A stretch of 64,000 bases of DNA from a candidate division CPR2 bacterium GW2011_GWC2_39_35 (lineage in GTDB: Bacteria > Patescibacteriota > CPR2). Positions 1,770-62,456 of the stretch are shown here, piece by piece. Every line of letters begins with the position of its first letter. The first letter of the stretch is position 1. Location: positions 153,284 to 217,283 of the forward strand of contig LBWX01000003.1 of assembly GCA_000995065.1 (NCBI GenBank), in the 5' to 3' direction. Position numbers and translations under genes: made by a program. Under the pieces are notes generated by a model. It worked only from the letters and a program-made list of their open reading frames with translations, ran no database searches and had not been told where the DNA came from.

Positions 1770-2818
1770 AAAACCTCCTGAATCTTTTCTAAGGCTTCTT
1801 CCGGAACAATACCTTCTGCCGGTTTAAAATAGGAATAATATTCGGCCTGGGTGGCTCCAAATAATGCGTCTCTTACTAGCTTTGCAAATTGGCCATGAGC
1901 AGCCTCTATTACCATTATTTTCTTAGCTTTTCTGACAGCTTTTATCATGGCTTCTTTTGGAAGCGGTCTTAAGGTGATTGGCCTAAATAAGCCAACCTTC
2001 ATTTTCTGCTCCCGAGCCATACTTACCGCCGCTTTTACGGCCTCAGCGACGCTGCCATGGGCAAAAACAATAAGTTCCGCATCACCGCAGTATAGCTCTT
2101 CATATTCGACTATTTTAGGACTCATTTTATGAAAATCTTCAATATCTTTATTTAAAACCTCTGCCAATTCATCTTCTAGACTATAACAGTTGCGGATATT
2201 TACATACTCGCCTTTTTCGATCCTTTCTTTGTCCTGCAGCATCGGCTTTGCATCTATGGTTTTTCCTTTGTGATAAATAACTTCGCCAAAGGTTTTGCCA
2301 AGATATCCATCGGACAAAATAAAAGTCGGGAAACGATAACGCCAGGCCGCATCGAAAGCTTTAAAAGTATAATCATACAACTCCTGAAGATTTCCGGGAG
2401 AATAAACAATCCTCATGCCTTCGCCATTTCCACCATGAGCGGTTAAAAAAAGCTCTTGCTGAGAAAAAATGACGGTACCAGTAGACGGGCCGCCGCGCTG
2501 AGCAATGTAAGTAACAATCGGGATTCTCATCGCCTCGGCCATAGCTAAAGAATCTTGCATTAAAATGTTTCCGGGACCAGCCGAAGCTGTCCATGCTTTT
2601 TTCCCTGCAAGAATACCGCCAATTGTTGCGAAACCTGCTGCAATCTCGTCTTCTGTCTGAAGAAAAACCAAATCTTTATCGACATCAGCACGCTTCGCCC
2701 AACCAGCTAAGATTTCAGTTGAGGGAGTTATTGGATAACCGCAGAACATGGATGCTCCGGCATCTATTGCAGCTTCGACAACAACTTCATTTCCAATTGC
2801 TAGGACCTTGTTCACCAA
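1766..2818 (-). CDS. porA: 2-oxoacid:ferredoxin oxidoreductase alpha subunit
   Basis: 350 aa; N-terminal GNEVVVEAAIDAG.. CGYPITPSTEI motif typical of POR/KOR alpha. Confidence 0.85.
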   Translation of the reverse strand: MVNKVLAIGNEVVVEAAIDAGASMFCGYPITPSTEILAGWAKRADVDKDLVFLQTEDEIAAGFATIGGILAGKKAWTASAGPGNILMQDSLAMAEAMRIPIVTYIAQRGGPSTGTVIFSQQELFLTAHGGNGEGMRIVYSPGNLQELYDYTFKAFDAAWRYRFPTFILSDGYLGKTFGEVIYHKGKTIDAKPMLQDKERIEKGEYVNIRNCYSLEDELAEVLNKDIEDFHKMSPKIVEYEELYCGDAELIVFAHGSVAEAVKAAVSMAREQKMKVGLFRPITLRPLPKEAMIKAVRKAKKIMVIEAAHGQFAKLVRDALFGATQAEYYSYFKPAEGIVPEEALEKIQEVL

Positions 2819-2824
2819 CCCTCC

Positions 2825-5023
2825 TTATATATCATATTTTAACACCATCTTTACATCCAAAGCAATAACGCCCTTATTCCTCTCGTTAACTCTTAACGGA
2901 TTTATATCCACTTCCTCGATCTCGGGAAAATCAGTCATAAGTTTTGACAGCCTAATAATCGTGTCGGAAATGGCATCAATGTCATATGCTTCTCCGCCTC
3001 TAAATTCCTGGAGCAGTTTTGAGCTTTTTGTTTCGGCTATCATTTCTAAGGCTTCTTTTTTGGTAACAGGTGCGATTCTAAAAGCAACATCATGAATTAA
3101 TTCAACCATGATTCCACCCAATCCAAATACGATAACCGGCCCAAAAATCGGATCTCGTTTGCCGCCCACAATAACTTCCTGACCTTTTCTTACCATATGA
3201 TAAACCGTAATTCCTTCGATTCTAGCTTCGGGCATTTTTTTATTTACGCTAGCCATTATTTCCTTAAAGGCTTCTTTTACTTCAGTCTTGTTATTTAAAC
3301 CAATTTTTACGCCTCCAACATCCGTTTTATGAAGAATGTCCTGAGATGTAATTTTTAAGACTACCGGAAAACCAATACTCTGAGCTGCTTCGGCCGCTTC
3401 CTCCGTATTTTTAGTTAGCTGACTTTTTGCCACATTAACGCCGTAAGAACGTAAAATTTTAGCCGCCAAACTATCCAAAGAATCGCCCAAGTTAAAGATT
3501 CCGGCAACATGTGCCTCCCTTAAAAGATTATTAACTCGGTCCTTATTAATGTTCTCTGTAAGTATAAGATCGGTCTTATCTTTTCGATCTAGATATTCTG
3601 AATATTCAAACATCGCCTCAAAAGCCCGAACCGCCCTTTCCGGAAAATCAAACGTTGGAATTTTATTCTCCGCTAGAACTTTAACACCTTCTGAGATTTT
3701 CTTTCCGCCCATAAAAGAAGCAATAACCGGTTTTTTATATTTTCTTTGCATCGCCACTATCACCTCTGCCGTTTTTTTAACTTCGGTTGTTATTTGCGGC
3801 GTAGCGATAACAATCACGCCATCCACATTTTTATCGGCGAGAACCGCCTCGAGCCCAATCTTATACCGATCGGCCTTAGCATCTCCCACAAGATCCACCG
3901 GGTTATTGATACTTGCCATTTTTGGCAATTTTCGCTCTAAATATGCTTTAGTTATCGAATTTAATTTGGCAAGCTCCAGTTTGCTCTGAAAAATGGCATC
4001 AGCAGTCATGACTGACGGTCCGCCAGCATTGGCAATGATAGCAATTTTATTTCCCTTTAAAAGAGGCTCAAAAGCAAACACTTTGGCATAATCAAAAAGC
4101 TCCTCTAAGTTGTATGCTCTTATAATTCCGGCTTTTTTAAAAGCAGCTGATACAGCCGTTTCTGAACCCGCTAGGCTTCCCGTATGGGAAGCGGCAGCCT
4201 TTGCCCCCGCAGATGTTATCCCGGCTTTTAAAACAATTAAAGGTTTTTTGGCGGTAATTTTTTTAGCAAAGCGAATAAAATTATCCCCTTCGCTTATTCC
4301 CTCTAAATATCCCAGGATTACCTTGGCCGCATTATCATTTTCCCATTCCTGAAACAAATCAGATTCATCGATATCGGCTTTATTTCCCAAAGAAACAAAT
4401 CTCGAAAAACCAATATCGTTAGCATTAGCCCAATCTAGAATAGCCGTACAAACCGCTCCGGATTGAGAAAAAACCGCAATGTTATTTTTTTCCGGCATGC
4501 TTTGGGCAAAAGAGGCATTAAGCTTTTGGAAAGTATCGATATACCCCAAACAATTTGGTCCCAAGACTCGAATTTGATGGTCATTTGCAATTTCTTTTAT
4601 CTGTCGCTCCAGCTCTTTTCCTTTTCCGCCGATCTCCCCGAAACCGGCTGAAATAATAATCGCGGTTTTTATACCCTTAATACCGCATTGCTCCAAAACT
4701 TCCGGTACGTAAAAAGCCGGCACCAGAATAACGGCCATATCTACCGAATCCGGGATATGATGAATCGTCTGGTAGCACTTGTATCCAAGAATTTCTTCGG
4801 CTTTTGGATTGACCGGATAAATTTTACCCCTAAAACCGTATCTTTTAATATTTGCAAGCACCAAGAAACCAAGCTTATCCGGATCTCTGGAAGCCCCGAT
4901 TATAGCGATACTTTTTGGTTGGAATAATAAATTCTTTTTCACATAATGCCTTAAAATATAATTACTTTTGATTCGTCTCCAAAGCTTTAAACAGAAAAGA
5001 TGCTTTAAAATGACAAAATCCAA
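2825..5023 (-). CDS. acd: acetyl-CoA synthetase (ADP-forming), fused alpha/beta domains (CoA-binding + ATP-grasp)
   Basis: 732 aa; KSIAIIGAS CoA-binding N-terminus, succinyl-CoA-synthetase-like flavodoxin domain, C-terminal ATP-grasp; annotated start at 5023 may be too far upstream (overlaps inverted repeat). Confidence 0.8.
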   Translation of the reverse strand: MDFVILKHLFCLKLWRRIKSNYILRHYVKKNLLFQPKSIAIIGASRDPDKLGFLVLANIKRYGFRGKIYPVNPKAEEILGYKCYQTIHHIPDSVDMAVILVPAFYVPEVLEQCGIKGIKTAIIISAGFGEIGGKGKELERQIKEIANDHQIRVLGPNCLGYIDTFQKLNASFAQSMPEKNNIAVFSQSGAVCTAILDWANANDIGFSRFVSLGNKADIDESDLFQEWENDNAAKVILGYLEGISEGDNFIRFAKKITAKKPLIVLKAGITSAGAKAAASHTGSLAGSETAVSAAFKKAGIIRAYNLEELFDYAKVFAFEPLLKGNKIAIIANAGGPSVMTADAIFQSKLELAKLNSITKAYLERKLPKMASINNPVDLVGDAKADRYKIGLEAVLADKNVDGVIVIATPQITTEVKKTAEVIVAMQRKYKKPVIASFMGGKKISEGVKVLAENKIPTFDFPERAVRAFEAMFEYSEYLDRKDKTDLILTENINKDRVNNLLREAHVAGIFNLGDSLDSLAAKILRSYGVNVAKSQLTKNTEEAAEAAQSIGFPVVLKITSQDILHKTDVGGVKIGLNNKTEVKEAFKEIMASVNKKMPEARIEGITVYHMVRKGQEVIVGGKRDPIFGPVIVFGLGGIMVELIHDVAFRIAPVTKKEALEMIAETKSSKLLQEFRGGEAYDIDAISDTIIRLSKLMTDFPEIEEVDINPLRVNERNKGVIALDVKMVLKYDI

Positions 5024-5096
5024 ATTTCAAATTCCAAATGAAATCCAAATGATTAAATTTCAAATAAAAAGACTTTTGACATTTGGATTTTGTCAT
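5010..5096. terminator. perfect 16-bp inverted repeat (atgacaaaatccaaat / atttggattttgtcat) with ~55-nt AT-rich loop between PfkB kinase and acd genes
   Basis: arms at 5010-5025 and 5081-5096 are exact reverse complements. Confidence 0.4.
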
Positions 5097-5152
5097 TGAT
5101 TTGACATTTGATATTTGAGCTTTGGCATTAATTTTATTTTTCATTTTCCCTC

Positions 5153-6127
5153 TCACTTTACTTTCACTGCTTGTCTCGCCTTAAATAAATCCCTCTTACT
5201 TAGCAGCCCTTCCGTTGCTCCCCATCTTCCAACAACCGATGCGGCATTCTTTGCCGCTTTTTCGAGCGAGATATTTACATCTAATCCCATTATTTGACAC
5301 GCCGTAAAGGTCGAGCCAAAAGCATCGCCTGCTCCCGTCGTATCAATAATGTGCGAAGACAAAACTTTTTGATAATACTCCATAAAACCATCACAAGCAT
5401 AAGCGCCATCATTGCCGCAAGTTACAATTACCATCTTTGGACCAAAAGATTTAAGCTCCATTAAAAGAGATTTTTCGTCATTTAAATCTAGCTTAGACCC
5501 CGAGGAAGAAACTAAATCCTTAGCCTCCTCTTTGTTTAAGATAAGGATTTCTGTTTCTTTTAAGAAATCGGCCAATTTTTTATAACCCTCTGAAAGCTGG
5601 ACCGATCCCGGATTCCAAGCTATTTTAATCTTATGAATTTTAGCAAAGTTAAAAATTTGGGGGACTAGAAGATCGGATTTTCCAGTTAAGGAGCTAACGT
5701 AAAACCAATCCGTCTTTTTTAACGGCCGCCAATTGTTAATAACCAGTTCATCATTTGCCCCTCTGTAGTTAAAAATTATGTGGTCCTTGCCGGCTACTAC
5801 TATATACCCTAAAGCCGTATGATTTTTCAAAGTTTTGTTAATAAAGGTTGTATTGACCCCTAAATTCTGCAAATCTGAAACCATAGCGCTTCCGGTGCCG
5901 TCTTTACCAATACTTGCCACCATGGCAGCCTTAAGCCCCAATCTGGCAAAACAAACCGAAGAATTATGAGCCCCGCCGCCATAAGTAAAAAAAGCCTCGT
6001 CAGGGATAATCTTCGATCCATATTCAAAAGCGAGAAGCGTTTCCTTTTTGTTTTCTATAATCTCACCTTTACAGGTTTTACAAAAGATATCTCTGGTGGC
6101 ACCACCAATGCTTACCACGTTAAACAT
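5153..6127 (-). CDS. PfkB-family carbohydrate kinase (ribokinase/phosphofructokinase-like)
   Basis: 324 aa; GG di-glycine region and DTTGAGDAF ATP/anion-hole motif of ribokinase superfamily. Confidence 0.75.
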   Translation of the reverse strand: MFNVVSIGGATRDIFCKTCKGEIIENKKETLLAFEYGSKIIPDEAFFTYGGGAHNSSVCFARLGLKAAMVASIGKDGTGSAMVSDLQNLGVNTTFINKTLKNHTALGYIVVAGKDHIIFNYRGANDELVINNWRPLKKTDWFYVSSLTGKSDLLVPQIFNFAKIHKIKIAWNPGSVQLSEGYKKLADFLKETEILILNKEEAKDLVSSSGSKLDLNDEKSLLMELKSFGPKMVIVTCGNDGAYACDGFMEYYQKVLSSHIIDTTGAGDAFGSTFTACQIMGLDVNISLEKAAKNAASVVGRWGATEGLLSKRDLFKARQAVKVK

Positions 6128-7379
6128 GCGTTGTTATCCTTCCGGATTTTTTTAAGACTGTTTTAAAAATTTCTCTCCCCCTTAGATGTTTTAGGGCGCC
6201 AAAACGACAACCCGTCTCGCCGAATTCACAAATACTATCTCTATTTTTACCATCGTAGATTAGAAAAGGAACCGGATCTTCGGCATGATCCTGAAGCTCG
6301 CATGCCGTAGTATGATCACCAGATATAAATATTAAAGTATTTTTTAGCTTTCGGAAAGCCTTAAGCTCTCGGTCTATTTTTTCAATCAATATCTTTTTCT
6401 CCATATAATCTCCTCGCTCTTCAGCACAAGTATCGACAGCCTTAAAATGGAGATAAACAAAATCATGATTTTTTAAAGCCTTTTTGGCCGCCACAACTTT
6501 GCTTTTATAGTTAGAACTGCTAAGACCATTAGCGCCATTCACCTTTATAAAATCCATCCCTAAATACCTTGCGATCCCAATATAAAGAGGCGCTCCGGCT
6601 ACCGCAGCAGCCCTTAAACCATATTTTTCTTTATAAGAAGGAACCTTAAAAAAGGTGCCGGATCCTCTTGTTAAAAGAAAATTAACGGGTAAAAGCCCTT
6701 TTTTAATTCTTTCTTCATTTAAAGGTAAGGTATTTAAATATTTATTGACTTCAAGCTGATATTTCCACAATGCCTTTGCGGTTTTAACGGAAGCCTGGGA
6801 ACTATCCAAGGGTTGAGGGTGCAAAACCTTGGCGTCCTTTTTGTGAGGGCCATCTTTATGGGGGTCCGTGTCCGACACCATAGACGAATGAGCATGAACA
6901 TTCTCGCTCAAATCTTTACCGCTTATAATAAGTACGCCGCGATGAGCCAAACCGGAGTAAATTTCAAAATTAAAACCGTCCACCTCCCTAGTTCCAATTG
7001 CTTCAGAAAATTCTATTGTTCTAGAAATATTCCCTGCCCGCGGATCCACAACTCGCAAATCTTCGTCTACCGTGCCGAAATCAACTCGTAAGGCAAGATC
7101 CCCGGGATTTAATTTGATCCCAAGCCCCAAGGCCTCCAAAACACCGCGTCCGGGATAGTCCTTAATATAATGATAGCCAAAAAGAGCCAAATGACATTCT
7201 TCGGAAGTGGGATAGACGCCTTTTGGCAAGGCATTTTGGACTCCGCAAATACCATTTTGGGCAAAAAAATCCATGTTTGGAGTCCGAGCCGCTTCTAGCG
7301 GCGTTTTACCCTCCAAATTTTTTATGGGCCTGTCGCCCAAACCATCTAAAATTACAAAAAGAATTTTTTTAAACGCCAT
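6120..7379 (-). CDS. apgM: 2,3-bisphosphoglycerate-independent phosphoglycerate mutase, archaeal type
   Basis: 419 aa; N-terminal ILFVILDGLGDRP metalloenzyme motif and overall ApgM-like sequence; overlaps neighbours on both sides. Confidence 0.85.
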   Translation of the reverse strand: MAFKKILFVILDGLGDRPIKNLEGKTPLEAARTPNMDFFAQNGICGVQNALPKGVYPTSEECHLALFGYHYIKDYPGRGVLEALGLGIKLNPGDLALRVDFGTVDEDLRVVDPRAGNISRTIEFSEAIGTREVDGFNFEIYSGLAHRGVLIISGKDLSENVHAHSSMVSDTDPHKDGPHKKDAKVLHPQPLDSSQASVKTAKALWKYQLEVNKYLNTLPLNEERIKKGLLPVNFLLTRGSGTFFKVPSYKEKYGLRAAAVAGAPLYIGIARYLGMDFIKVNGANGLSSSNYKSKVVAAKKALKNHDFVYLHFKAVDTCAEERGDYMEKKILIEKIDRELKAFRKLKNTLIFISGDHTTACELQDHAEDPVPFLIYDGKNRDSICEFGETGCRFGALKHLRGREIFKTVLKKSGRITTHV

Positions 7380-8085
7380 CTCCCTTTAGTTTTCTTAATT
7401 TTTTATAAAGTATAAACGACGGATTGGTAATTAAAATAAACGAGAGAAAAGTGACTAAAATGCTACTTATTATTGGCAAGGATGTAAGAATAATGCTAAC
7501 TACGATTATTGGCAGATAGAGAACGACGAGAGTCACGAAAATTTTTCCCTTATAGCCGCTTGTAATTGCTTTACTCTCCCTTAAAGCCTCTAGGCCTCGC
7601 TTTCCCTCAGAGACATAAATATAAGGCGCCATAAAATACATCACCATAAAAATAAAGCCCGGAATTATAAGCAAAATAAACCCTAGAAGAACTTTTAGGC
7701 CGTAAAGAATAGTTACGAAAAGAAATCCCCAGAACTTTCCTTTTGTTTCCTTAAAGATTCCGGATAACTGGCCCTTAATTAGATTCTTACCCGAAATAAT
7801 CTTATCCAAAGACTGTAGATACATCAAAAGAGGGTAAATCGAAAGGATCGAAAGAAATATTACAAGAACAAGGACAAAAAGATCACTAATAAGTTCTTGG
7901 CCATTTGTATCGTCAAAGAATAAACCGCCAAGACTCGCAATTAAATTTATCATGCCAGTTATAGCAATAAGAATAAGAAGAGGTTTAAAATTTGTCTTAA
8001 ATAAACCCCACGATTCACCAACTAAATCAATAATTTTAGGAAAACTATTTTCTTCGGAAGCACTCTTGTTATTTCCTTTACTCAT
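7369..8085 (-). CDS. hypothetical polytopic membrane protein
   Basis: 238 aa, ~6 hydrophobic segments; translationally overlapped with apgM inside the glycolytic operon. Confidence 0.5.
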   Translation of the reverse strand: MSKGNNKSASEENSFPKIIDLVGESWGLFKTNFKPLLILIAITGMINLIASLGGLFFDDTNGQELISDLFVLVLVIFLSILSIYPLLMYLQSLDKIISGKNLIKGQLSGIFKETKGKFWGFLFVTILYGLKVLLGFILLIIPGFIFMVMYFMAPYIYVSEGKRGLEALRESKAITSGYKGKIFVTLVVLYLPIIVVSIILTSLPIISSILVTFLSFILITNPSFILYKKLRKLKGDGV

Positions 8086-21211: not shown

Positions 21212-21251
21212 AATGACGGTTTTTATACGATCGTTTAATTTTCGTCATTTA
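21212..21251. promoter_or_regulatory. conserved 40-bp palindromic motif (copy 1)
   Basis: aatgacggtttttatacgatcgtttaattttcgtcatttaa. Confidence 0.5.
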
Positions 21252-21438
21252 AGAGATCGTTTTGTTGGTTTTTGGTGATTAAATGCGGGAAAACTATAGC
21301 CTCGAAAACTCTTTACAAATTTCCATTTTTCTGTTAAATTATTAGAGTTGAAAATAGGAAATAGAAGGTAGAAAACAGGAAATAATTAAGAATCAGCCTT
21401 CTATTTATTAGTCACTATTTCCTATTTACTTGACTTAT

Positions 21439-21515
21439 GGCCCCGTCGTCTAGTGGCCTAGGATATCAGGTTTTCATCCTGAAGATCGCGGGTTCGAATC
21501 CCGCCGGGGCTGCCA
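21439..21515 (+). tRNA. tRNA-Glu (anticodon TTC)
   Basis: 77 nt including CCA; acceptor stem GGCCCCG/CGGGGCT (one G-U), anticodon stem TCAGG/CCTGA with loop TTTTCAT, T-arm GCGGGTTCGAATCCCGC. Confidence 0.85.
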
Positions 21516-54957: not shown

Positions 54958-57135
54958 CTACGGTGTCGTAACCAGCATTCTTTTCTTTGGATCTGCCTTT
55001 ATTATAGATTTTATCGGAATTCTAAAGCCAAAAACCGAACCCTTGGAACTAGACCTAAAGATTATCTCGCCGCCATGATCTTCCACTACCCTTTTAGCCA
55101 AATAAAGGCCAAGGCCATTACCATCCGGACGCAAGCGCCTGGCGTTATCCGCCCTGTAGAATTTAGAGAACAATTTATTTTGCACTTCTTTTGGAACACC
55201 AATGCCGGTATCAATTACCTCAAAGACAAATTCGTGTTTATTGGCCGCGGCTCTTACAGTCACTCCGCCCTTTTCTGTATAATAAATCGCATTATCAATA
55301 AAGTTCATTATGACCTGACGAATCTTATTCTCATCGGCCTGAACGGTTGACATCTTTTTAGGGCACTCAAACTTAAGCCACAAGTTTTTGGTTCTAGCCT
55401 GATGCGCTAATTGTTTAACTTCATCAGCAATCATAACTTTCATATCAAGATCCTTGGGATCGATAAAGAATTTGCCCGTACTCATTCTGGACACATTTAG
55501 AAGATCATTAATTAAAGTCACCATCTTATTAGCGCCCTGAAATGCCTCATTTATAAAGTCAAACTGGCCAACCTTGATTTCTCCCGCATCCCCTTCTAAA
55601 AGCATGGATAAATAACCCTTAATAGCTGTAAGCGGAGTGCGCAGCTGATGAGATGCCATGGAGATAAACTCATCTTTTGCCTTGTCAAGTTCTTGCAGAT
55701 GGTCGTTAGCTTCGCGAAGTTTTTTGGTCTGACGCAAAACCTCCGCCTTCAAGGTGATGTTAAACTTCTGGATTTCCTCATACTGCTTGGCCCGCTGCAT
55801 CGCCATGGTAATTTCCGGCTCCACAATCTCTAAAATCTGGATATCTTTTGCCGCATACATATCCCCCGACTTTTTTTCACCCAAGAACAAAATGCCGGCA
55901 AATTGGTGATCCTCCATAAGCCTAACGGCTACCGAAGTCTCATATCTTCTTAAAATAGATTTGAGCCTGCTTCCTTCTTCTAATTCGTCATATACTGCAA
56001 TTGGAAAGCGGCTTAGATATTTAATGTCGCCGTATTCAACTTCCGGCGCTTTTTTGTAACCGATAGACTGAACAGAATGAATATGCCCTTCCTCTACTAC
56101 TACAAACATGCCTTCTAATATTTTAAATTGCTGCAAAATATGATCTAAGCTTTTATAAAGAAGCTCGGTTAAGACGATATTGGTACTTAAGATATGGTTA
56201 GTTTCCCTAAGAAAAGCATCCGGATCATACTGCTCTTTAAAGAAAATTTTATCCGTAACTTTGGTAAGAAATCTCCGTAATGGCTGAAAGGTAAAGGCCA
56301 TTACCATGGCAAGAATGATTTGGATGATTGTATGCGTCATAGAATAACCCTGCTCCGGAAAAAACAATCTCTGAACTGCAAAAATCGTAGTAGCATAACC
56401 CCCGGCAAGAATGATGACAAGCAGCGTATATGCCAAAGATTTGGCAACCACCATCCGAATGTCCATAAGACGATGTTTAACAATGGCGTAGGCTATGCCA
56501 CCAATCATAAAAACAAAACCATAAATCCCTAAACGATTAACTGTTTCATTAACTATCAACAGCCTAGGTATGATTAGGTTAGTTGAAATTGCAATTGTCG
56601 CAGATAAAGATAACCCCATTGTTATATAAAGTAATTGCGACCTAGCCACTCCTCGAGAAGAAGACAATTTTTTAATAAGAATAGTGATTCCCACAAGAGA
56701 TAAGGCAATTAACATGACAGAATAAATAATAAATAAAGGACCCTCTTGAAAATCTATGCCCATATCTTTAGAAAAATGTACGCTCTCAATAATGTACGAT
56801 GAATAAGCTAATCCAGAAAAAACAATTGAAGCTATTAACGATACTATCCAAAGAGTATTCTTTATCTTACTCTCAGACTGAAAAACCAAGCAGAAAGAAA
56901 AAAAGGTAAACGATGTGATTAGACCAAATGCAAAATCTGTCCTTACAAGATAACTAACTAAAGCAACATTCAATGTCTCGCTTTCAAAAAAAATAACCAA
57001 TGACCAAATAGATAACGCTAGTGTAAGCAAGAAGAAGATAAGGTTGGAGGGTTTTTTTGAATTTCTAGAAAAAACCAGGAGACCAAGAAACAAATTTAGA
57101 GAGACCGCTATAATTAAAAGCGCATAACTAATCAT
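54958..57135 (-). CDS. sensor histidine kinase, paralogue of 49845-52052 (multi-TM sensor + GAF-like + HisKA + HATPase_c)
   Basis: H-box MASHQLRTPLTAI; same architecture; start set at MISYALL (ORF-track start 57171 overlaps upstream gene). Confidence 0.8.
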   Translation of the reverse strand: MISYALLIIAVSLNLFLGLLVFSRNSKKPSNLIFFLLTLALSIWSLVIFFESETLNVALVSYLVRTDFAFGLITSFTFFSFCLVFQSESKIKNTLWIVSLIASIVFSGLAYSSYIIESVHFSKDMGIDFQEGPLFIIYSVMLIALSLVGITILIKKLSSSRGVARSQLLYITMGLSLSATIAISTNLIIPRLLIVNETVNRLGIYGFVFMIGGIAYAIVKHRLMDIRMVVAKSLAYTLLVIILAGGYATTIFAVQRLFFPEQGYSMTHTIIQIILAMVMAFTFQPLRRFLTKVTDKIFFKEQYDPDAFLRETNHILSTNIVLTELLYKSLDHILQQFKILEGMFVVVEEGHIHSVQSIGYKKAPEVEYGDIKYLSRFPIAVYDELEEGSRLKSILRRYETSVAVRLMEDHQFAGILFLGEKKSGDMYAAKDIQILEIVEPEITMAMQRAKQYEEIQKFNITLKAEVLRQTKKLREANDHLQELDKAKDEFISMASHQLRTPLTAIKGYLSMLLEGDAGEIKVGQFDFINEAFQGANKMVTLINDLLNVSRMSTGKFFIDPKDLDMKVMIADEVKQLAHQARTKNLWLKFECPKKMSTVQADENKIRQVIMNFIDNAIYYTEKGGVTVRAAANKHEFVFEVIDTGIGVPKEVQNKLFSKFYRADNARRLRPDGNGLGLYLAKRVVEDHGGEIIFRSSSKGSVFGFRIPIKSIIKADPKKRMLVTTP

Positions 57136-57721
57136 AAACAATTCCTCGTCTCCAATTTTTAACATAAACATTCTGAATTTGGTTTTGCTTATCAGGAAAT
57201 TTTGAATTACTAATTATATCGATAGCCTTTTTTTCAACACCTTTATATTTTAACTGTAATACATTTATTAATTCATTGCCAACAAAACCTTTTCCTTTAC
57301 TCTGATGATAGAAATTTAAATAACTATAATCTAATAGCCCTAGCCTTAAAAAGTACCACACAGATATGAGCAAAGAACAAGGAATATGACCCTCTTTATT
57401 ACTAATATAACTTAAGTAACTTCTTTTTGCTTTACCTTCGTTTATTAATTCAAAAAAAGGCTCTTTAAGCTTAACTAGCTCGGACTCAAATAGTACAAAA
57501 TCTGGCATAACGTTTGAATGCTCGAGATTGGATAAGTACTTATCTATGTTTAATTTCTGCCTTGTCGGATTATAATCATCAATTAAAAGTGCTAGACTAT
57601 AAGACAAACCTTTTTCGCCAATACTTATGGTTATGTCCTTAACTGCCGGGATCATACCATGAGAACGAATATTTTTTTCATCAATATAAATATGAGCAAA
57701 CTCAATGCTAAAACTTTCCAA
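57128..57721 (-). CDS. hypothetical protein
   Basis: 197 aa ORF, no recognisable motif. Confidence 0.4.
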   Translation of the reverse strand: MESFSIEFAHIYIDEKNIRSHGMIPAVKDITISIGEKGLSYSLALLIDDYNPTRQKLNIDKYLSNLEHSNVMPDFVLFESELVKLKEPFFELINEGKAKRSYLSYISNKEGHIPCSLLISVWYFLRLGLLDYSYLNFYHQSKGKGFVGNELINVLQLKYKGVEKKAIDIISNSKFPDKQNQIQNVYVKNWRRGIVYD

Positions 57722-58894
57722 TTATTTGCCTCCCAAAATTAGCTTAAGCAAAAATTGGTTAGTTGCTGCTTTTTCAAATAACCAACCCCAAAATTTAGGA
57801 AAAGGAAATGAATAAAAGGGATTTGTTGCCTTAAATAAAACACCATAATTACCACTTTCTTTGTCTCCAACAAAACCATTTTCAACTAGCCTAACTTTCT
57901 CTAATCCGAAAGATTCATACATCCGAATTTGCGGGTCAAGCGCAACCTCTTTACCATCCTTTATAATTCTCTTGCTATAATATTCCTCTGGAGTCATTTC
58001 CTGTCTAAACTTATGAAAGTCTGGCATTCTACCACTAAAATATGCCATTTTTTTGCGTTCTGCTATTAATTTCCTCCCCGCCGCCGCAAAAAGCCTATCT
58101 ACCAATTCCAAACCTCTAACGTCAGGGCTTGTTGTTAATGCAACACCATAAACATACCTACCGTTAGAATCAAATGTAGTATCAAGTGTCCCATTATCAG
58201 TTGAGTCCTCCCAAGATGTAAAATCCTTAATTCCTTTATTGGTAGGCATTAGGCTTAAAATTCCTTTAACTTTTCCATCCATATCAGCAACAAAAAACCA
58301 TTCTTTACTATTTTCTATCCTTTTTCCCATCATCTCCCCAGTAGCCGTAACTTCTTTAGAAATGTCACCATACCTATCATTATCAACCTCTAGTATGTCC
58401 TCCAGATCTGATATTTTAACATTTCTTATAATAACTTTTTTTCTATTGAAAATCCTATTGAATTCTAGCGGAATGCTTGCTATTAACAAAACAATAGATA
58501 GTTCAACAAATAGTAATGAAGAGATTAAAGGAGGCAACTTATCCCATCCACTAACCAATAGATAGGCTGGAGGAACAAAAGCAGCTATCCTGTTCAACGT
58601 AAATCCCGTATACACTAACTCATTTTCGAATGTTACGTTCTGAAAATCTAAATTAAAAATATGATTAAGGCGCAATTTTATAATACCACTACCAAGAATC
58701 ATTAAAATAATGCCGATATTAAAAAAAATCTCACTAATAATTAATATGGTTAAAAAAAACATTGGATCAATACCGTATTGCTCATTAACAACGTTAAAAC
58801 CTTTTACAATAATTTCAAAAACTAGCCAACCAATGATAACAAGGGTTGTTAACAATACTATCTTTGAAAGTCTTTTATTTTTCCCTAGTTTCAT
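57722..58894 (-). CDS. membrane protein (4 N-terminal TM) with C-terminal GNAT-like acyltransferase-type domain (tentative)
   Basis: 390 aa; hydrophobic N-terminal third; C-terminal YVYGVALTTSPDVRGLELVDRLFAAAGRK block reminiscent of GNAT motif A. Confidence 0.4.
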   Translation of the reverse strand: MKLGKNKRLSKIVLLTTLVIIGWLVFEIIVKGFNVVNEQYGIDPMFFLTILIISEIFFNIGIILMILGSGIIKLRLNHIFNLDFQNVTFENELVYTGFTLNRIAAFVPPAYLLVSGWDKLPPLISSLLFVELSIVLLIASIPLEFNRIFNRKKVIIRNVKISDLEDILEVDNDRYGDISKEVTATGEMMGKRIENSKEWFFVADMDGKVKGILSLMPTNKGIKDFTSWEDSTDNGTLDTTFDSNGRYVYGVALTTSPDVRGLELVDRLFAAAGRKLIAERKKMAYFSGRMPDFHKFRQEMTPEEYYSKRIIKDGKEVALDPQIRMYESFGLEKVRLVENGFVGDKESGNYGVLFKATNPFYSFPFPKFWGWLFEKAATNQFLLKLILGGK

Positions 58895-58930
58895 AAATAA
58901 ATCTGGTTACTTTCATTATTTTTTTATTTA

Positions 58931-58995
58931 TACTCATGCCCAATCTCCCTCGCTATCTCTGACCACTAGCAAATCACGCACTATTTCTTCCATCA
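58931..58995. repeat. ~65-bp direct repeat copy A (degenerate duplicate of the 3' end of plsC); partner at 60280-60345
   Basis: tactcatgcccaatctc + cgctatctc + gcactatttcttc blocks shared with 60280-60345. Confidence 0.6.
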
Positions 58996-59209
58996 TTTAC
59001 TATTTATCCCATTATACCCTACTTACTCTAAATAATTAAATACAAATCCTTTTGCTAAATATTCTTAAAAAAAGGGGCAGTTCTCTCTTTAAATATTAAT
59101 CTCCTATTTTATTAATAACCAATCGCCTACCCACACAAATAACAAAAATAGCCTCCAAAATCCTGCAACATTTGACACCTCCCGAATCTCGCCAATCAAT
59201 TATTTTAGG

Positions 59210-59249
59210 ATGACGGATTTTCTACGATCGTGGTAATTACGTCATTTAA
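59210..59249. promoter_or_regulatory. conserved 40-bp palindromic motif TGACGG-N-TACGATCGT-N-CGTCATTTAA (second copy at 21212-21251)
   Basis: two near-identical occurrences in intergenic DNA, internal ACGATCGT palindrome flanked by TGACG/CGTCA inverted arms. Confidence 0.5.
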
Positions 59250-59424
59250 CAAGGCGCTCGCTTTATGAATTTTATCCTAATAACCGCTAAACTTTTTCTT
59301 GACGTTCCAATAGTTTAGGATTACAAGTTTAAAAACATATGTAATTATCGTAATATAATGACACGCCCATCTTTAAGAAGAGAAAAGCTATTTTGATAAG
59401 CAATGACTAACTAAAGGAGCTAAT

Positions 59425-59835
59425 ATGAAATTTGCGGTTGCTACAAAAGCTGTTATCTTAAATCCAAAAGGAGAAGTTTTAATACTAGTAAAGAGCAATA
59501 AAGATGAAATTAACCCGAAAACTGCCGATATCCCTGGAGGACGTCTAAAATTCAGCGAAAAAATTGAAGATTGCTTAAAAAGGGAAATTGAGGAAGAAAC
59601 TAGTATAAAAGAGATCAATATCATAGCACCTTCCAAAACATGGAGCCTAATAAAAGATGATATGCATCTTGTAGGAATCACGTTTGCTGTAACTACTAAT
59701 ACCTATGAAGTTAAGACAAGCTTTGAACATGAAAGCTTTTCTTGGCTATCGCCAGAAGAAATTTTAGAAAGCAATCTTTCGGATTGGATAAAAGAAGAAG
59801 TGAGGGCAGCATTAAAAATAGCCAGCCAAAACTAA
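59425..59835 (+). CDS. Nudix hydrolase
   Basis: 136 aa; Nudix box GGRLKFSEKIEDCLKREIEEETS. Confidence 0.75.
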   Translation: MKFAVATKAVILNPKGEVLILVKSNKDEINPKTADIPGGRLKFSEKIEDCLKREIEEETSIKEINIIAPSKTWSLIKDDMHLVGITFAVTTNTYEVKTSFEHESFSWLSPEEILESNLSDWIKEEVRAALKIASQN

Positions 59836-59879
59836 AAAACGGCCCCAAAGCCGCTTTACTACCTTAATCTTTCTTAAGC

Positions 59880-60155
59880 TTATGCCATCTCCGGCATTTG
59901 AATGAATTTCCTAATTTTTTTTATCTCTAGACCTTGTTCATCTTGCCGTTCAATAACAGCATTTAGTTTTCTTTCTATTCTATCATTGCTCATTTCTAAA
60001 TTCTCAACCCTTTTTTCTAACCCACCCATACTATGCTCTAATTTATCCATTCTGTTCTCTAACCCGTCCATCTTATCTTCCAAACGAACAATATGCGGCA
60101 AGACAACTTGCTCGAAACCTTCGTTAAATAAATTAATCATCTCTTTCTTATCCAT
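59880..60155 (-). CDS. small coiled-coil protein with repeated LE..M(D/E)KLE heptads
   Basis: 91 aa; LEDKMDGLENRMDKLEHSMGGLEKRVENLEMSNDRIERKL. Confidence 0.45.
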   Translation of the reverse strand: MDKKEMINLFNEGFEQVVLPHIVRLEDKMDGLENRMDKLEHSMGGLEKRVENLEMSNDRIERKLNAVIERQDEQGLEIKKIRKFIQMPEMA

Positions 60156-60263
60156 AAAAATAATATACCTTCTGTTAGGACCTAAGTCAACAAAAAATTA
60201 GCCGATCTAAAGAAATGTACACACCCGGTGTGTACAGCCTAGACACAAAAGCAATTACTAAGG

Positions 60264-60884
60264 CTAAGTTTTGTGCTCGTACTCATGCCCAATCTCACGC
60301 GCTATCTCAGGCATTAAGATGTCGTGCACTATTTCTTCGGGTGTTTTGTCAGCAATTTCTTTATAGGAAATCGGTTCCAAGAATTTAACCCTACAAATCC
60401 GCTTTATTCTGGGAAACTTATGATGCCTTCCAAAAACGTGATGCGAATTTTCTATAGCTACAGGCAAAATATCTACCTGATTTTGCAGAGCCATTCTAGC
60501 CACGCCCCTATATGCCTTAAGCGGTTTTCCATCGTAGCTCCTGGTTCCTTCCGGGAAAAGAACTAAGATATGGCCTCTTCCTAAAACATCAGCCGCTGCC
60601 TGATAAACCATCTTCTTATCTTTACTAAAACGATCCACCTTTATTTGTCCGGTTATACGCATAATAAACCTAAAGAAAGGGTTTCTATAGATCCAGTCTG
60701 CCGCCAAAAAGAAAAGTCTTCTTCTAACCGCCGCACCAAGAAATGCAAAATCCAAATAACTCGCGTGATTAGCTGCAATTATAATCGGCCCCTTTCTGGG
60801 AATATTATGCTTTCCCTCAACCCTTTCTATCCAAAAAAGTTTAATCAGGGGGCTTAAAAGAATTTTTAGAACTCGATACAGCAT
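60264..60884 (-). CDS. plsC: 1-acyl-sn-glycerol-3-phosphate acyltransferase
   Basis: 206 aa; NHASYLD (HX4D) and FPEGTRS motifs. Confidence 0.8.
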   Translation of the reverse strand: MLYRVLKILLSPLIKLFWIERVEGKHNIPRKGPIIIAANHASYLDFAFLGAAVRRRLFFLAADWIYRNPFFRFIMRITGQIKVDRFSKDKKMVYQAAADVLGRGHILVLFPEGTRSYDGKPLKAYRGVARMALQNQVDILPVAIENSHHVFGRHHKFPRIKRICRVKFLEPISYKEIADKTPEEIVHDILMPEIAREIGHEYEHKT

Positions 60885-60995: not shown

Positions 60996-62456
60996 CTAGT
61001 AAGCCTTGGCAAAGATTACTCGCTTGTCAGATTTTTGGCTGCAGAGAATGCATTTACCTTCTTCTTCTTTCTCGTCAAAAGGAATGCAGCGGATAGTGGC
61101 TTTGGTTTGCCGCTGAACTTCGGCTTCACATTCCTCGCTACCGCACCAATGAGCCCTTATAAATCCGGGGTTCTCCTCCAAAATATTCTTAAACTCATCC
61201 CAATCGTCAGTAATATGAGTGTTGTTACTTCTAAAATCCAAAGCCTTTTTATAGAGATCATTTTGGATAGTTTCCAAAAGATCATTTGCATAGATGCCTA
61301 TCCTCTCGTCGCTTACAAATTCCTTTTCTCCAGTATCCCTTCTTACTACAACCACCGTATTTTTAGCGACGTCTTTCGGTCCGATTTCTATTCTTACCGG
61401 CACTCCTTTTTTCTCCCACTCGTAGAATTTAGGACCCGGGCGACCTTCTCTGTCATCAATATGAATGGTGATGCTTTGATCCCTTAAAGAATCAGCCATT
61501 TCTTTAGTTTTCGACATCACCGCTTTTTTATCTTCTTCGTTATCCCAAATCGGCACAATTACCGCCTGGACGGGCGCAATTTTTGGCGGCAACACCAAAC
61601 CCTTATCATCACTATGAGTCATAATGAGACCGCCAATTATTCGGGTACTCAAACCCCAACTTGTTTGCCACGCATACTGTTCTTTTCCATCCGAGTCCGA
61701 AAATTTGACATCAAAGGCCTTAGCAAAGTTTTGGCCCAACATATGAGACGTGCCGGACTGAAGAGCCTTACCGTCTTGCATCATGGCTTCGACAGTCGTT
61801 GTGTAAACCGCTCCGGCAAACTTTTCGGATTCCGACTTAAAGCCGCTAATTACCGGCATAGCCAAGTAGTCCTCTGCAAATTTCTTGTAAACGCCTATCA
61901 TTTCTAGTGTCATTTCAGACGCCTCTTTTTCTGACGCGTGAGCCGTATGCCCTTCCTGCCACAAAAATTCGGTGGTCCTTAAAAATGGCCTAGTCCGCAT
62001 CTCCCACCTAACCACATTTGCCCATTGATTAATAAGAAGTGGCAAGTCCTTGTAAGACTCGATCCATCTGGAATAAGTGTCATATATTATAGTCTCCGAC
62101 GTCGGACGAACAATTAGCGGCTCATCCAGCTCCCCGTCCGGAATTAACTTGCCGTTTTCTTCTTTTAGTCGATGATGGGTAACAATAGCGCATTCTTTGG
62201 CAAAACCTTCTACGTGCTTAGCCTCTTTTTCGAAAAAACTTTTAGGAATAAATAAAGGGAAATAAGCGTTTTTGACCCCCTTTTCTTTAAACATCCCGTC
62301 TAACGTTTTTTGTATATTTTCCCAGATGGCGTAACCCTCCGGCTTTATAACCATGCAGCCTCTAACAGGCGAGTTATCAACTAAATCAGCCGCTTGAATG
62401 ACGTCTAAGTACCATTTTGAATAATCTTTTTCTCTGGAAGTTATCTTTTTATCCAT
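60996..62456 (-). CDS. proS: prolyl-tRNA synthetase, archaeal/eukaryotic type
   Basis: 486 aa; class II motifs, C-terminal Zn-binding domain with Cys cluster (HWCGSEECE ... CILC). Confidence 0.9.

Follow-up and report, generated by a model that had tools for sequence, protein, structure and literature searches.

How did a Nudix hydrolase gene and a small coiled-coil gene come to lie just downstream of plsC in a groundwater CPR2 bacterium, between two copies of the end of that gene, and how did plsC stay intact? The first-pass annotation of the window (the whole 64-kb stretch of DNA that was analysed) proposed an insertion that duplicated, or recombined through, the 3' end of plsC, with flanking repeats of an attL/attR-like kind and no integrase retained. 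The features on which the answer turns are collected in Table 1.

Table 1. Features of the plsC locus, in window coordinates, from the 390-aa gene to the start of plsC
Feature	Position	Strand	Basis
390-aa gene, membrane N-terminus and acetyltransferase-like C-terminus	57722..58894	-	PHROG acetyltransferase match, 2.1e-9
Copy A, displaced and decayed plsC 3' end	58920..58990	-	1-nt insertion, premature stop, invariant M and P changed to V and S
ORF-free stretch, 434 nt, from the relic to the Nudix start	58991..59424		Stops in all six frames
Nudix hydrolase gene, 136 aa	59425..59835	+	Pfam NUDIX, 1.4e-14
Terminator-like hairpin between the convergent coiled-coil and Nudix genes	59836..59857		Terminator scan
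Coiled-coil gene, 91 aa	59880..60155	-	Weak DUF7310 match, 2.4e-7, below the curated cut-off
Promoter-like TTGACT-N17-TATATT, just upstream of the coiled-coil gene	60162..60190	-	Consensus scan, 10/12, consensus match only
Terminator-like hairpin element	60205..60250	-	Terminator scan; 1 copy in the 64-kb window
plsC, intact, 206 aa, 1-acylglycerol-3-phosphate acyltransferase family	60264..60884	-	Pfam Acyltransferase, 1.9e-30; NCBIfam AGP_acyltrn domain, 2e-27
Copy B, functional last 24 codons of plsC (EEIVHDILMPEIAREIGHEYEHKT and stop)	60269..60338	-	Repeat alignment, translation

The direct repeat on which the proposal rests is not a product of chance. Copy A, near the start of the 390-aa gene, and copy B, the 3' end of plsC itself, are identical in 54 of 71 aligned columns (76%), rising to 48 of 60 in a core region (80%, with 11 mismatches and one gap, a single 1-nt indel), and they have in common the three exact blocks already listed in the first-pass annotation, TACTCATGCCCAATCTC (17 nt), GCACTATTTCTTC (13 nt) and CGCTATCTC (9 nt). 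That annotation had described a repeat of ~65 bp and ~75% identity at 58931-58995 and 60280-60345; its existence stands, but its limits are now those of Table 1, reaching ~11 nt farther toward the stop codon. At the other end the similarity stops sharply at 58990/60338, at the GAAGAA of EEIV, and the duplicated part of plsC comprises the last 24 codons only. Far from falling below random expectation, the local alignment of the two copies scores 35, against 12.2 ± 1.3 in shuffles (shuffle maximum 18), which places it ~17 sd above them. The 17-mer occurs in the window only in A and B, even when 3 mismatches are allowed (0.11 expected), and blastn of the repeat against the window (E = 2.4e-8) gave no further match.

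Read on the minus strand, copy B retains LMPEIA and GHEY, residues that never vary in the PlsC alignment, and the whole protein aligns end to end with the PlsC of four relatives (L007, L008, L009 and L017) at 54-57% identity. Copy A had been described as a decayed version of this C-terminus, and translation bears this out: MMEEIVRDLLVV is read in one frame and, past the 1-nt insertion, SEIAREIGHEYK and a stop in another, and the two frames together match the end of PlsC. With the one frameshift corrected, the relic reads EEIVRDLLVSEIAREIGHEYK and stop, corresponding to PlsC residues 183-203, and its AREIGHEY is shared with copy B, where L007, L008 and L017 have AK(E/D)LGHEY. The relic derives from coding sequence; its stop lies 32 nt from the ATG of the 390-aa gene. 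We also considered, and rejected, the idea that it is what remains of a complete plsC pseudogene. Neither at the DNA nor at the protein level does similarity continue past the last 24 codons, tblastn of the ORF-free stretch with four PlsC proteins matched residues 183-206 and nothing more, and the rest of that stretch scored 14 against the rest of plsC at the DNA level, compared with 11.9 ± 1.4 in shuffles. The residual similarity along the rest of plsC expected of a whole-gene duplicate was not found.

Could the similarity nevertheless be accidental, or the contig a chimeric assembly? The probability of either is close to nil, and this reading is already effectively refuted. The only points in its favour are an AT-rich background and the fact that some assemblies break at 59816-59857 and 60686-60738. 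Chance is opposed by the alignment score, by the restriction of the 17-mer to two sites and by the match of both relic frames to the PlsC C-terminus. As for a chimera, the places where contig ends recur are assembly gaps (59816-59857 is a break or N-gap in several assemblies), bridged by scaffolds in which the gene order is unchanged. The arrangement is real, and no assembly artefact, because assemblies from different samples and pipelines share the same sequence across the whole region. It was identical in all strains sampled, with no intermediate and no presence/absence polymorphism of the segment. Two apparent departures were set aside: a 2.4% divergence in the plsC of L020, met in a search for recombination breakpoints, consisted of runs of N, and L006, listed as a "95% relative", was the same organism with identical DNA.

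An insertion at this place predicts relatives in which plsC is directly followed by the 390-aa gene, and such an empty site, foreseen in the first-pass annotation, is present in both L007 and L008. In L007, plsC occupies 5902-6546 and the 390-aa homologue, 64.6% identical to ours, 6642-7820, with a 95-nt spacer between them; in L008 the corresponding positions are 1866-2510 and 2614-3750, with 45.8% identity and a 103-nt spacer. The genes after the 390-aa homologue include a histidine kinase in both genomes and a 197-aa gene in L007 only. The two spacers are well conserved mutually and bear a promoter, and no such spacer is present at our locus. The spacer after copy B was tried as the ancestral plsC-to-390 spacer and rejected, its similarity to those of L007 and L008 being not significant (p = 0.2-0.5). 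The gene context of a shorter 390-aa homologue, P0008, was uninformative.

The other two relatives are organised differently. In L009, plsC (5001-5627) is followed by an 81-aa gene on the opposite strand, a second plsC (6570-7184) and then HAD and histidine kinase genes. Both L009 and L017 have a different Nudix gene upstream of plsC, on the opposite strand; these were considered as relatives of the Nudix gene studied here and proved unrelated to it. Two genome-collection scans and one metagenome scan for closer relatives yielded nothing beyond L009, L017 and a further contig of the same organism, and in none of the relatives did the Nudix and coiled-coil genes occupy the same place without flanking repeats. 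Judged by gene order, the 390-aa gene is most probably the ancestral downstream neighbour of plsC. The polarity is not strictly proven, as L007 and L008 may instead have lost the segment when its flanking repeats recombined. Taken together, the empty sites in two relatives and a repeat far above chance support what had originally been proposed: DNA was inserted between plsC and the 390-aa gene, and a copy of the plsC 3' end stands on either side of it, the distal one being dead.

What was inserted is short: 1,348-1,349 nt now separate codon 182 of the ancestral plsC from its last 24 codons. Starting from plsC, the order opens with a second, intact and in-frame set of 24 codons and a terminator-like hairpin. 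Next come the promoter-like site and the coiled-coil gene, then another hairpin and the Nudix gene, which converges on the coiled-coil gene, and last ~430 nt that do not code. With this second in-frame tail in place, plsC stayed functional. The hairpin nearest plsC has the stem-loop TGTACACAC-CGG-GTGTGTACA at 60216-60236, followed by ATTTCTTT, and lies 16 nt past the plsC stop. In one strain there is a SNP at 60163, within the promoter-like site.

The coiled-coil protein has conserved ends (FNEGFEQVVLPHI and DRIERKLNAV..RQDEQGLEIKK) and a variable coiled-coil middle; a search of 5.8 billion proteins found 6 cluster representatives including this one, rare and patchily distributed across phyla, and none of the other 5 adjoins plsC or a Nudix gene. 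Its actinobacterial relatives occupy a stable chromosomal setting, with SpoIID/SLH genes on one side and an ECF sigma factor gene on the other, and no match was found in phage, plasmid or viral collections. The Nudix protein is 58% identical to an orthologue in the CPR2 bacterium GW2011_GWC1_39_9 and matches the PADLOC candidate family PDC-S07 at 3.4e-14. Its gene lies within ~3-7.5 kb of orthologous thioredoxin and AMP-ligase genes both here and in L010, another CPR2 genome, and it may therefore be an old resident of the neighbourhood and not foreign cargo. As a test of phage origin of the cargo, the PHROG matches were generic.

The first-pass description of the remaining contents, the two genes and an ORF-free stretch of 530 nt (58895-59424), was accurate. 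This stretch contains the palindrome ATGACGG-N6-TACGATCGT-N8-CGTCATTTAA at 59210-59249, with one related copy elsewhere in the window at 21213-21252, and a TATAAT at 59011-59016 on the minus strand. A hidden RNA gene was sought in it, but neither an Rfam family nor a tRNA matched and the folding energy showed no excess (z = 0.55 and 1.28), nor were remnants of the genes neighbouring the locus in L010 or L007 found there. A sub-threshold Rfam match to CsrC was seen elsewhere in the inserted segment. The GC content of the segment is 31-36%, against 30-33% for the 390-aa and 197-aa genes, and gives no compositional sign of foreignness.

The explanation that we tentatively prefer, at a little less than an even chance, is a homology-assisted insertion in which the arriving DNA carried a plsC tail of its own and displaced the resident tail downstream. 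Two routes could have led to this. One end of a linear fragment might have recombined homologously with plsC while its other end was attached illegitimately (homology-facilitated illegitimate recombination). Alternatively, a circularised piece of DNA that included a plsC tail might have integrated by a single crossover. Both processes are documented (PMC3240628), and the first has been proposed for displaced 3' gene remnants at Vibrio T6SS and Rhs loci (PMC5361080). Either would place new DNA beside plsC, provide a homologous C-terminus in frame and leave a short direct repeat, with no integrase needed. The displaced old tail, a useless fragment, has since gained the frameshift, the premature stop and the changes at invariant residues. 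The 390-aa gene, its promoter-bearing spacer lost, would presumably now be transcribed from within or through the inserted DNA.

The two junctions are of the kind that such an event should leave. On the plsC side, copy B is continuous with the gene and is followed immediately by unrelated DNA. On the right-hand side, the break at the outer limit of the repeat is abrupt, as expected of an illegitimate joint, because the rest of the ORF-free stretch has no similarity to plsC. The hairpin offers a further hint. It is single-copy here, and a related motif of ~36-45 nt (GAAATGYACACACCCGGTGTGTAC..TAGACACA) occurs 3 times in 12 kb of L010, a CPR2 genome, flanking the Nudix orthologue on both sides, which hints that the segment came from a different genomic background. 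Three viral matches to a degenerate form of the hairpin pattern are likely due to chance. Several observations weigh against a foreign origin: no donor with plsC, hairpin, coiled-coil and Nudix genes in this order and lacking the relic was found, there is no GC contrast, and the Nudix gene is apparently syntenic. In addition, ~20% divergence would make recombination within the 71-nt tract alone inefficient, and the anchor would have to lie further upstream in plsC.

The same motif could be given a more specific role. In L010 two direct copies bracket the Nudix orthologue, and one of them truncates an Hsp70-like gene, an arrangement that would suit a site at which small gene cassettes recombine in CPR2 bacteria by a system with no integrase of its own. 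The Nudix gene, alone or together with the coiled-coil gene, would then be a cassette moved in trans and the plsC tail one of its landing sites. We consider this highly improbable.

For homology-assisted insertion, an indication that one tail came from elsewhere lies in the differences between the two copies. Six fall in 12.3 synonymous sites and six in 47.7 non-synonymous sites (pN/pS 0.26; Fisher p = 0.009 against equal rates, on 12 differences in all), and arginine is preserved, as CGT in one copy and AGG in the other. This synonymous excess fits tails that diverged partly while both were coding, that is, with one copy coming from another lineage. Codon tests of which copy is the foreign one were suggestive but underpowered, and PlsC showed no clear incongruence when its pairwise identities were set beside those of the 390-aa protein and the histidine kinase.

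The codon comparison bears directly on a simpler possibility, that ~70 nt of the target were duplicated in situ during an insertion not guided by homology, through staggered-break repair or template switching, with copy A neutral ever since. No outside donor of a plsC tail would be needed, the AREIGHEY shared by the two copies against the relatives would follow naturally, and six changes in the tail of the relic all have G/C in B and A/T in A, the pattern that decay should give in an AT-rich genome. Nor can the codon test reject it: neutral decay of A with B under constraint predicts a pN/pS of ~0.5, and 12 differences are too few to separate this from 0.26. However, a copy that had always been neutral should have accumulated roughly 15 non-synonymous changes where 6 are seen (a rough calculation with a wide error), and about half of the synonymous sites differ, yet the reading frame of the relic is still recognisable. 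Copies A and B (80% identical) are also nearly as distant from each other as each is from the tail of L007, which is 73.8% identical to both. We know of no transposition chemistry that produces target duplications of ~70 nt, and here one would have to have arisen with neither terminal inverted repeats nor a transposase. We rate in situ duplication as quite unlikely.

Mobile elements of the usual kinds were searched for in the segment, and no integrase, transposase, terminal inverted repeat or tRNA was found; its only ORFs are the Nudix and coiled-coil genes, and in this the earlier statement that no integrase was retained was right. An insertion sequence or MITE is a poor match: the ends of the insert have no inverted repeats, there is no transposase, and the repeat is both long (71 nt) and diverged. 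Other copies of the segment, for which a search had been advised, were not found in the 64-kb window, and no insert at the plsC tail was found in other genomes by two genome-collection scans and one metagenome scan.

Integrase-borne elements deserve separate consideration. Prophage e14 of E. coli encodes its own integrase. In the manner of e14 or phage 21 in icd, an element whose attP carried a replacement plsC tail might have integrated here, with its integrase and most of its cargo later deleted. The layout is indeed that of e14, which supplies the 3' codons of icd and leaves a pseudo-3' fragment, icd' (163 bp), at the other end (PMC6379469, PMC13626634). As at an att site, direct repeats stand at a gene's 3' end, plsC is kept whole while the distal copy is dead, and relatives have empty sites. 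The 17-nt exact block might be the core, though it is equally compatible with plain homology between conserved coding sequences, and the 430-nt ORF-free stretch might be decayed element DNA; the rarity and patchy distribution of the coiled-coil gene and a hairpin motif typical of another genome would also suit imported cargo. Against this, the segment contains no recombinase ORF or detectable remnant (searches of the 430-nt stretch, with plsC and neighbouring-gene proteins as the queries, gave no match), and nothing is integrated at the plsC tail in the other genomes scanned. The coiled-coil protein has no phage, plasmid or viral relative and is stably chromosomal in Actinobacteria, and the Nudix gene looks syntenic within CPR2. 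An att remnant is therefore unlikely in our view. The "attL/attR-like" description fits the layout, and nothing shows site-specific recombination: there is no recombinase, no second copy of the segment in the window, and the repeats are ~20% diverged with 17 nt as their longest exact block.

A last alternative is a two-step gene displacement. A second complete plsC, a paralogue or xenologue possibly accompanied by the upstream lipid and ProRS genes, might have arrived ~1.3 kb upstream of the resident one, with the coiled-coil and Nudix genes already the upstream neighbours of the latter, and the redundant resident would then have been deleted except for its last 24 codons. L009 shows that tandem plsC paralogues with a small opposite-strand gene between them do exist, and both L009 and L017 have an opposite-strand, though different, Nudix gene upstream of plsC. 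A Nudix gene apparently native to the thioredoxin/AMP-ligase neighbourhood would be explained, as would a synonymous excess suggesting that both copies were once functional. This scenario, however, has to assume two events and, on top of these, a tandem duplication or an arrival at this location by coincidence, and the first 182 codons of the supposed resident have left no trace. In its plsC type the relic clearly agrees with copy B, whereas the second L009 paralogue is only 36-40% identical to plsC1-type proteins, and the identity matrices show no sign that the present plsC is xenologous. We regard such a displacement as doubtful, but worth keeping in mind.

Genomic islands and prophages at the 3' ends of tRNA and tmRNA genes obey a logic similar to that of the insertion at plsC: the element carries the 3' end of the gene, the gene stays intact and a partial duplicate marks the other boundary. 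DLP12 at argU is an example (PMC6379469). Our locus differs from these in its protein-coding target, its diverged repeats, its tiny insert and the lack of an integrase. The e14 and phage 21 insertions in icd are closer, since there too the insert sits in the 3' end of a housekeeping protein gene and supplies a slightly different functional tail, a short fragment at the far end (icdC or icd') is what is left of the original one, and direct repeats flank the insert (PMC6379469, PMC13626634). However, e14 is a 15-kb prophage that excises (PMC13626634), and its icd tails are nearly identical over a repeat of 163 bp, whereas here a 1.35-kb insert with no recombinase or evidence of excision is flanked by 71-nt repeats that are ~20-24% diverged, the displaced tail being frameshifted. 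The displaced 3' ends of Rhs and Vibrio T6SS loci resemble our locus in the mechanism that we prefer: homology to a conserved gene anchors one end of the incoming DNA, an illegitimate joint fixes the other, and no integrase takes part. The module lands immediately behind the conserved portion, and the former 3' region, moved downstream, is left as an orphan remnant (PMC3240628, PMC5361080). In those loci, however, the displaced ends are variable toxin domains under diversifying selection, with immunity genes retained, while here both tails specify one and the same C-terminus, a conserved part of a lipid enzyme; the cargo has no relation to plsC, and only one event can be seen.

The locus is thus a real but ordinary rearrangement scar of a known type, and no new kind of system. 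Its relic is a molecular fossil of the former adjacency of plsC and the 390-aa gene in this lineage, an adjacency still seen in two relatives. A presumably essential lipid gene tolerated an insertion into its tail because the new DNA brought a replacement, and the event separated the 390-aa, 197-aa and histidine kinase genes from plsC as well as from their conserved promoter region. Mechanisms of rearrangement in CPR bacteria are hard to observe directly, and this locus provides a concrete, datable change of gene order without visible mobile-element machinery.

In this groundwater genome from the Rifle aquifer (PRJNA268031), named in public records as a candidate division CPR2 bacterium, a displaced and decaying plsC tail marks the place where 1.35 kb was inserted between plsC and the gene that used to adjoin it, which encodes a 390-aa protein. 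The first-pass annotation was correct in this finding, and as a description its interpretation is essentially right.

Features of the plsC locus and of related loci
Locus	Feature	Position	Strand	Remarks
Window	ProRS	60996-62456	minus	
Window	plsC	60264-60884	minus	
Window	perfect 9-bp hairpin, then ATTTCTTT	60216-60236		first element past plsC stop
Window	TTGACT-N17-TATATT site	60162-60190		between first hairpin and coiled-coil gene
Window	coiled-coil gene, 91-aa product	59880-60155	minus	
Window	second hairpin	59836-59857		between coiled-coil and Nudix genes
Window	Nudix gene, 136-aa product	59425-59835	plus	convergent with coiled-coil gene
Window	ORF-free stretch, 430 nt			beyond Nudix gene, last part of segment
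Window	390-aa gene	57722-58894	minus	then 197-aa gene and 7TM histidine kinase, minus
L007	plsC	5902-6546		
L007	390-aa homologue, 64.6% identity	6642-7820		then 197-aa homologue and histidine kinase
L008	plsC	1866-2510		
L008	390-aa homologue	2614-3750		then histidine kinase
L010	hairpin-motif copies	2848-2883, 5713-5744, 6425-6460		all same orientation

The direct repeat of the plsC 3' end, already noted in the first-pass annotation, was recovered alike by repeat search, MAFFT and local alignment. The displaced copy (copy A, the relic) aligns over 58920-58990 with the last codons of plsC itself (copy B) over 60269-60338, with 54/71 identities over the whole tract and 48/60 in its core; the alignment has a single 1-nt indel, and its exact blocks measure 17, 13 and 9 nt. 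The limits first proposed were slightly off: the similarity ends at 58990/60338, not 58995/60345, and runs ~11 nt further toward the stop codon. Chance similarity is excluded, as the 17-mer is limited to the two repeat sites within the window with 3 mismatches tolerated (0.11 expected) and shuffled sequences reach 12.2 +/- 1.3 where the real alignment reaches 35. Copy A, translated from the minus strand, yields MMEEIVRDLLVV; past the 1-nt insertion, a different frame yields SEIAREIGHEYK and a stop. Both match the PlsC C-terminus (PEEIVHDILMPEIAREIGHEYEHKT, stop). A blastn search of the window gave no second copy of the segment between the repeats.

With the relic masked, the other 430 nt of the ORF-free stretch contained no plsC-like DNA (score 14 versus 11.9 +/- 1.4), and tblastn with four PlsC proteins as queries matched residues 183-206 alone. 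The duplication is therefore limited to the plsC tail, and the relic cannot be the terminus of a full-length plsC pseudogene. An assembly artefact at the locus was excluded. Contig ends or N-gaps recur in independent assemblies at 59816-59857 (the Nudix/coiled-coil hairpin) and 60686-60738 (inside plsC); these are assembly gaps, perhaps from micro-heterogeneity or a drop in coverage. One strain, which differs by SNPs at 60163 and 60880, has scaffolds that bridge them and keep the gene order. One assembly (L006) is the same organism as the window, and the apparent strain divergence of another (L020) consists of runs of N.

Homologues of the 390-aa protein are few: a search of 5.8 billion proteins gave 14 cluster representatives, this organism's own included. 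Two are on contigs (L007 and L008) where plsC directly precedes the homologue, which is the empty site that had been predicted. The plsC-to-homologue spacers (95-103 nt) are well conserved mutually (score 32 versus 9.2) and include a promoter-like block, TTGACC / TATATTAC; in the window this block is missing, and just 32 nt separate the relic stop from the start codon (ATG) of the 390-aa gene. Taken with the two empty sites, the relic shows that plsC and the 390-aa gene once adjoined each other in the window's ancestor. The relatives could instead have lost the segment via recombination between the repeats, which would alter the timing of the event, not its nature. Genome and metagenome scans for plsC loci gave three more only. 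Two relatives (L009 and L017) have a third arrangement, with a small opposite-strand gene after plsC, beyond which L009 has a further plsC paralogue, distantly related, and then HAD and histidine kinase genes; the plsC-to-kinase interval is thus generally variable. The tandem paralogues of L009 (5001-7184) share 39% identity, the small gene between them encoding 81 aa; upstream of plsC, both L009 and L017 carry a thioredoxin gene and an unrelated Nudix gene. The order plsC, 390-aa membrane/acetyltransferase-like, 197-aa and 7TM histidine kinase is kept even though identity between these relatives and the window is just 44-65% (window 54958-58894; L007 5902-10584; L008 1866-5162; 197-aa gene in L007 only), which suggests that the genes work together as a lipid or envelope module. 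No Pfam family was found for the 390-aa or 197-aa protein.

The segment, at 31-36% GC, resembles the genes on its left (window, 38%). It has no recombinase or transposase, in line with the earlier remark that no integrase is retained, and its ends lack inverted repeats. An att-type element, as first pictured, shares its layout with e14 in icd, whose 3' codons come from the prophage while a pseudo-icd' fragment of 163 bp remains at the far end (PMC6379469, PMC13626634). No recombinase supports such an element here, and it is quite unlikely. The ORF-free stretch gave no Rfam match, tRNA or excess folding energy, and no similarity to genes neighbouring the relatives' loci. A palindrome of 36-40 nt at 59210-59249 (ATGACGG-N6-TACGATCGT-N8-CGTCATTTAA) occurs twice in the window, the related copy at 21213-21252 being 33/40 identical, and both copies are found in intergenic regions of unusual length (~530 nt). 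This composite palindrome, not found in the relatives' loci compared, could be an operator or other regulatory site. The 21213-21252 copy is ~190 nt upstream of a tRNA gene (~21440-21515, Glu by anticodon reading).

The Nudix protein has an orthologue (58% identity) in CPR2 bacterium GW2011_GWC1_39_9 (L010), whose gene is ~3 kb away from AMP-ligase and thioredoxin genes. Orthologues of these two (64% and 53% identity, respectively) are present ~7.5 kb from the window Nudix gene, which speaks for the latter being an old resident of this neighbourhood. The protein matches PADLOC candidate defence family PDC-S07 nearly full length (3.4e-14), and its Nudix box reads REIEEETSI, with Ser replacing the usual Gly by our reading. 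The coiled-coil protein has just five other cluster representatives, and no relatives in viral, phage or plasmid collections. In L013, a relative of L010, its gene follows the same 269-aa and 125-aa pair that precedes the L010 Nudix gene, so the convergent coiled-coil/Nudix pair may be ancestral in CPR2. The coiled-coil gene of Aquicultor-like actinobacteria always lies between a SpoIID/SLH gene and an ECF sigma factor gene, the latter followed by a DUF5667 gene. Family members (window, L016, L040, L042) have invariant termini, FNxGF and RxERKxNxVxxRQDEQGxEI, and differ in the length of the coiled-coil part between them; contigs with the gene are mostly < 10 kb. Downstream of the L013 homologue is a ~230-nt MITE-like unit (in 6354-7023) bounded by 20-nt inverted repeats, AGAGCCTGTTCAAAATCTCA / TGAGATTTTGAACAGGCTCT. 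Assembly L026 has a 52-nt frame-breaking deletion in the coiled-coil gene (window 59938-59989), either a strain variant with an inactivated gene or an assembly error, along with a SNP at 59235 within the palindrome and an N-gap at 59241.

The hairpin element adjoining copy B (60205-60250) is single-copy in the 64-kb window. Its motif, GAAATGYACACACCCGGTGTGTAC..TAGACACA (36-45 nt), has three copies in 12 kb of L010, where two direct copies flank the Nudix orthologue and one of these two cuts off an Hsp70-like N-terminal fragment; a dispersed element of REP or terminator type is one possible identity for the motif. The truncated ORF (L010 5636-5902, minus), starting MYGIDFGTSNTVVCFYDG and judged by eye an Hsp70/actin-like ATPase N-terminus, ends after ~50 codons exactly at the motif and resembles what a rearrangement junction would leave of a gene.

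Over the first 20 codons, copies A and B differ at 6/12.3 synonymous and 6/47.7 non-synonymous sites (pN/pS = 0.26; Fisher p = 0.009 versus equal rates), with arginine preserved by CGT versus AGG. This pattern fits tails that would have diverged partly while both were coding, i.e. one imported. A simpler model, with A neutral and B constrained, has an expected ratio of about 0.5 and cannot be rejected with only 12 differences. The clearly derived changes of the relic are M>V and P>S at residues invariant in PlsC; it also has H>R (the histidine is retained in the other tails compared), a frameshift and an early stop. Copy B has one derived change, L>I. The L007 tail shares 73.8% identity with each copy, and the two copies share 80%; identity matrices of PlsC, the 390-aa protein and the kinase did not clearly mark plsC as xenologous.

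Random insertion is implausible for a homologous tail that is in frame and replaces the old one exactly at its cut; the event must have been guided by homology, or the tail carried by an element. We tentatively favour homology-assisted insertion as the origin of the segment, at somewhat less than even confidence. The segment could have been inserted by homology-facilitated illegitimate recombination, or a circularised fragment could have integrated by a single crossover; both processes are documented (PMC3240628), and the former was proposed for displaced 3' remnants at Vibrio T6SS and Rhs loci (PMC5361080). Displacement in two steps through another copy of plsC is, in our judgement, unlikely, and duplication in situ with later decay very unlikely. 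The plsC scar is a fresh instance of an already known kind of scar, and its value is modest, lying mainly in a documented machinery-free rearrangement in a CPR genome.
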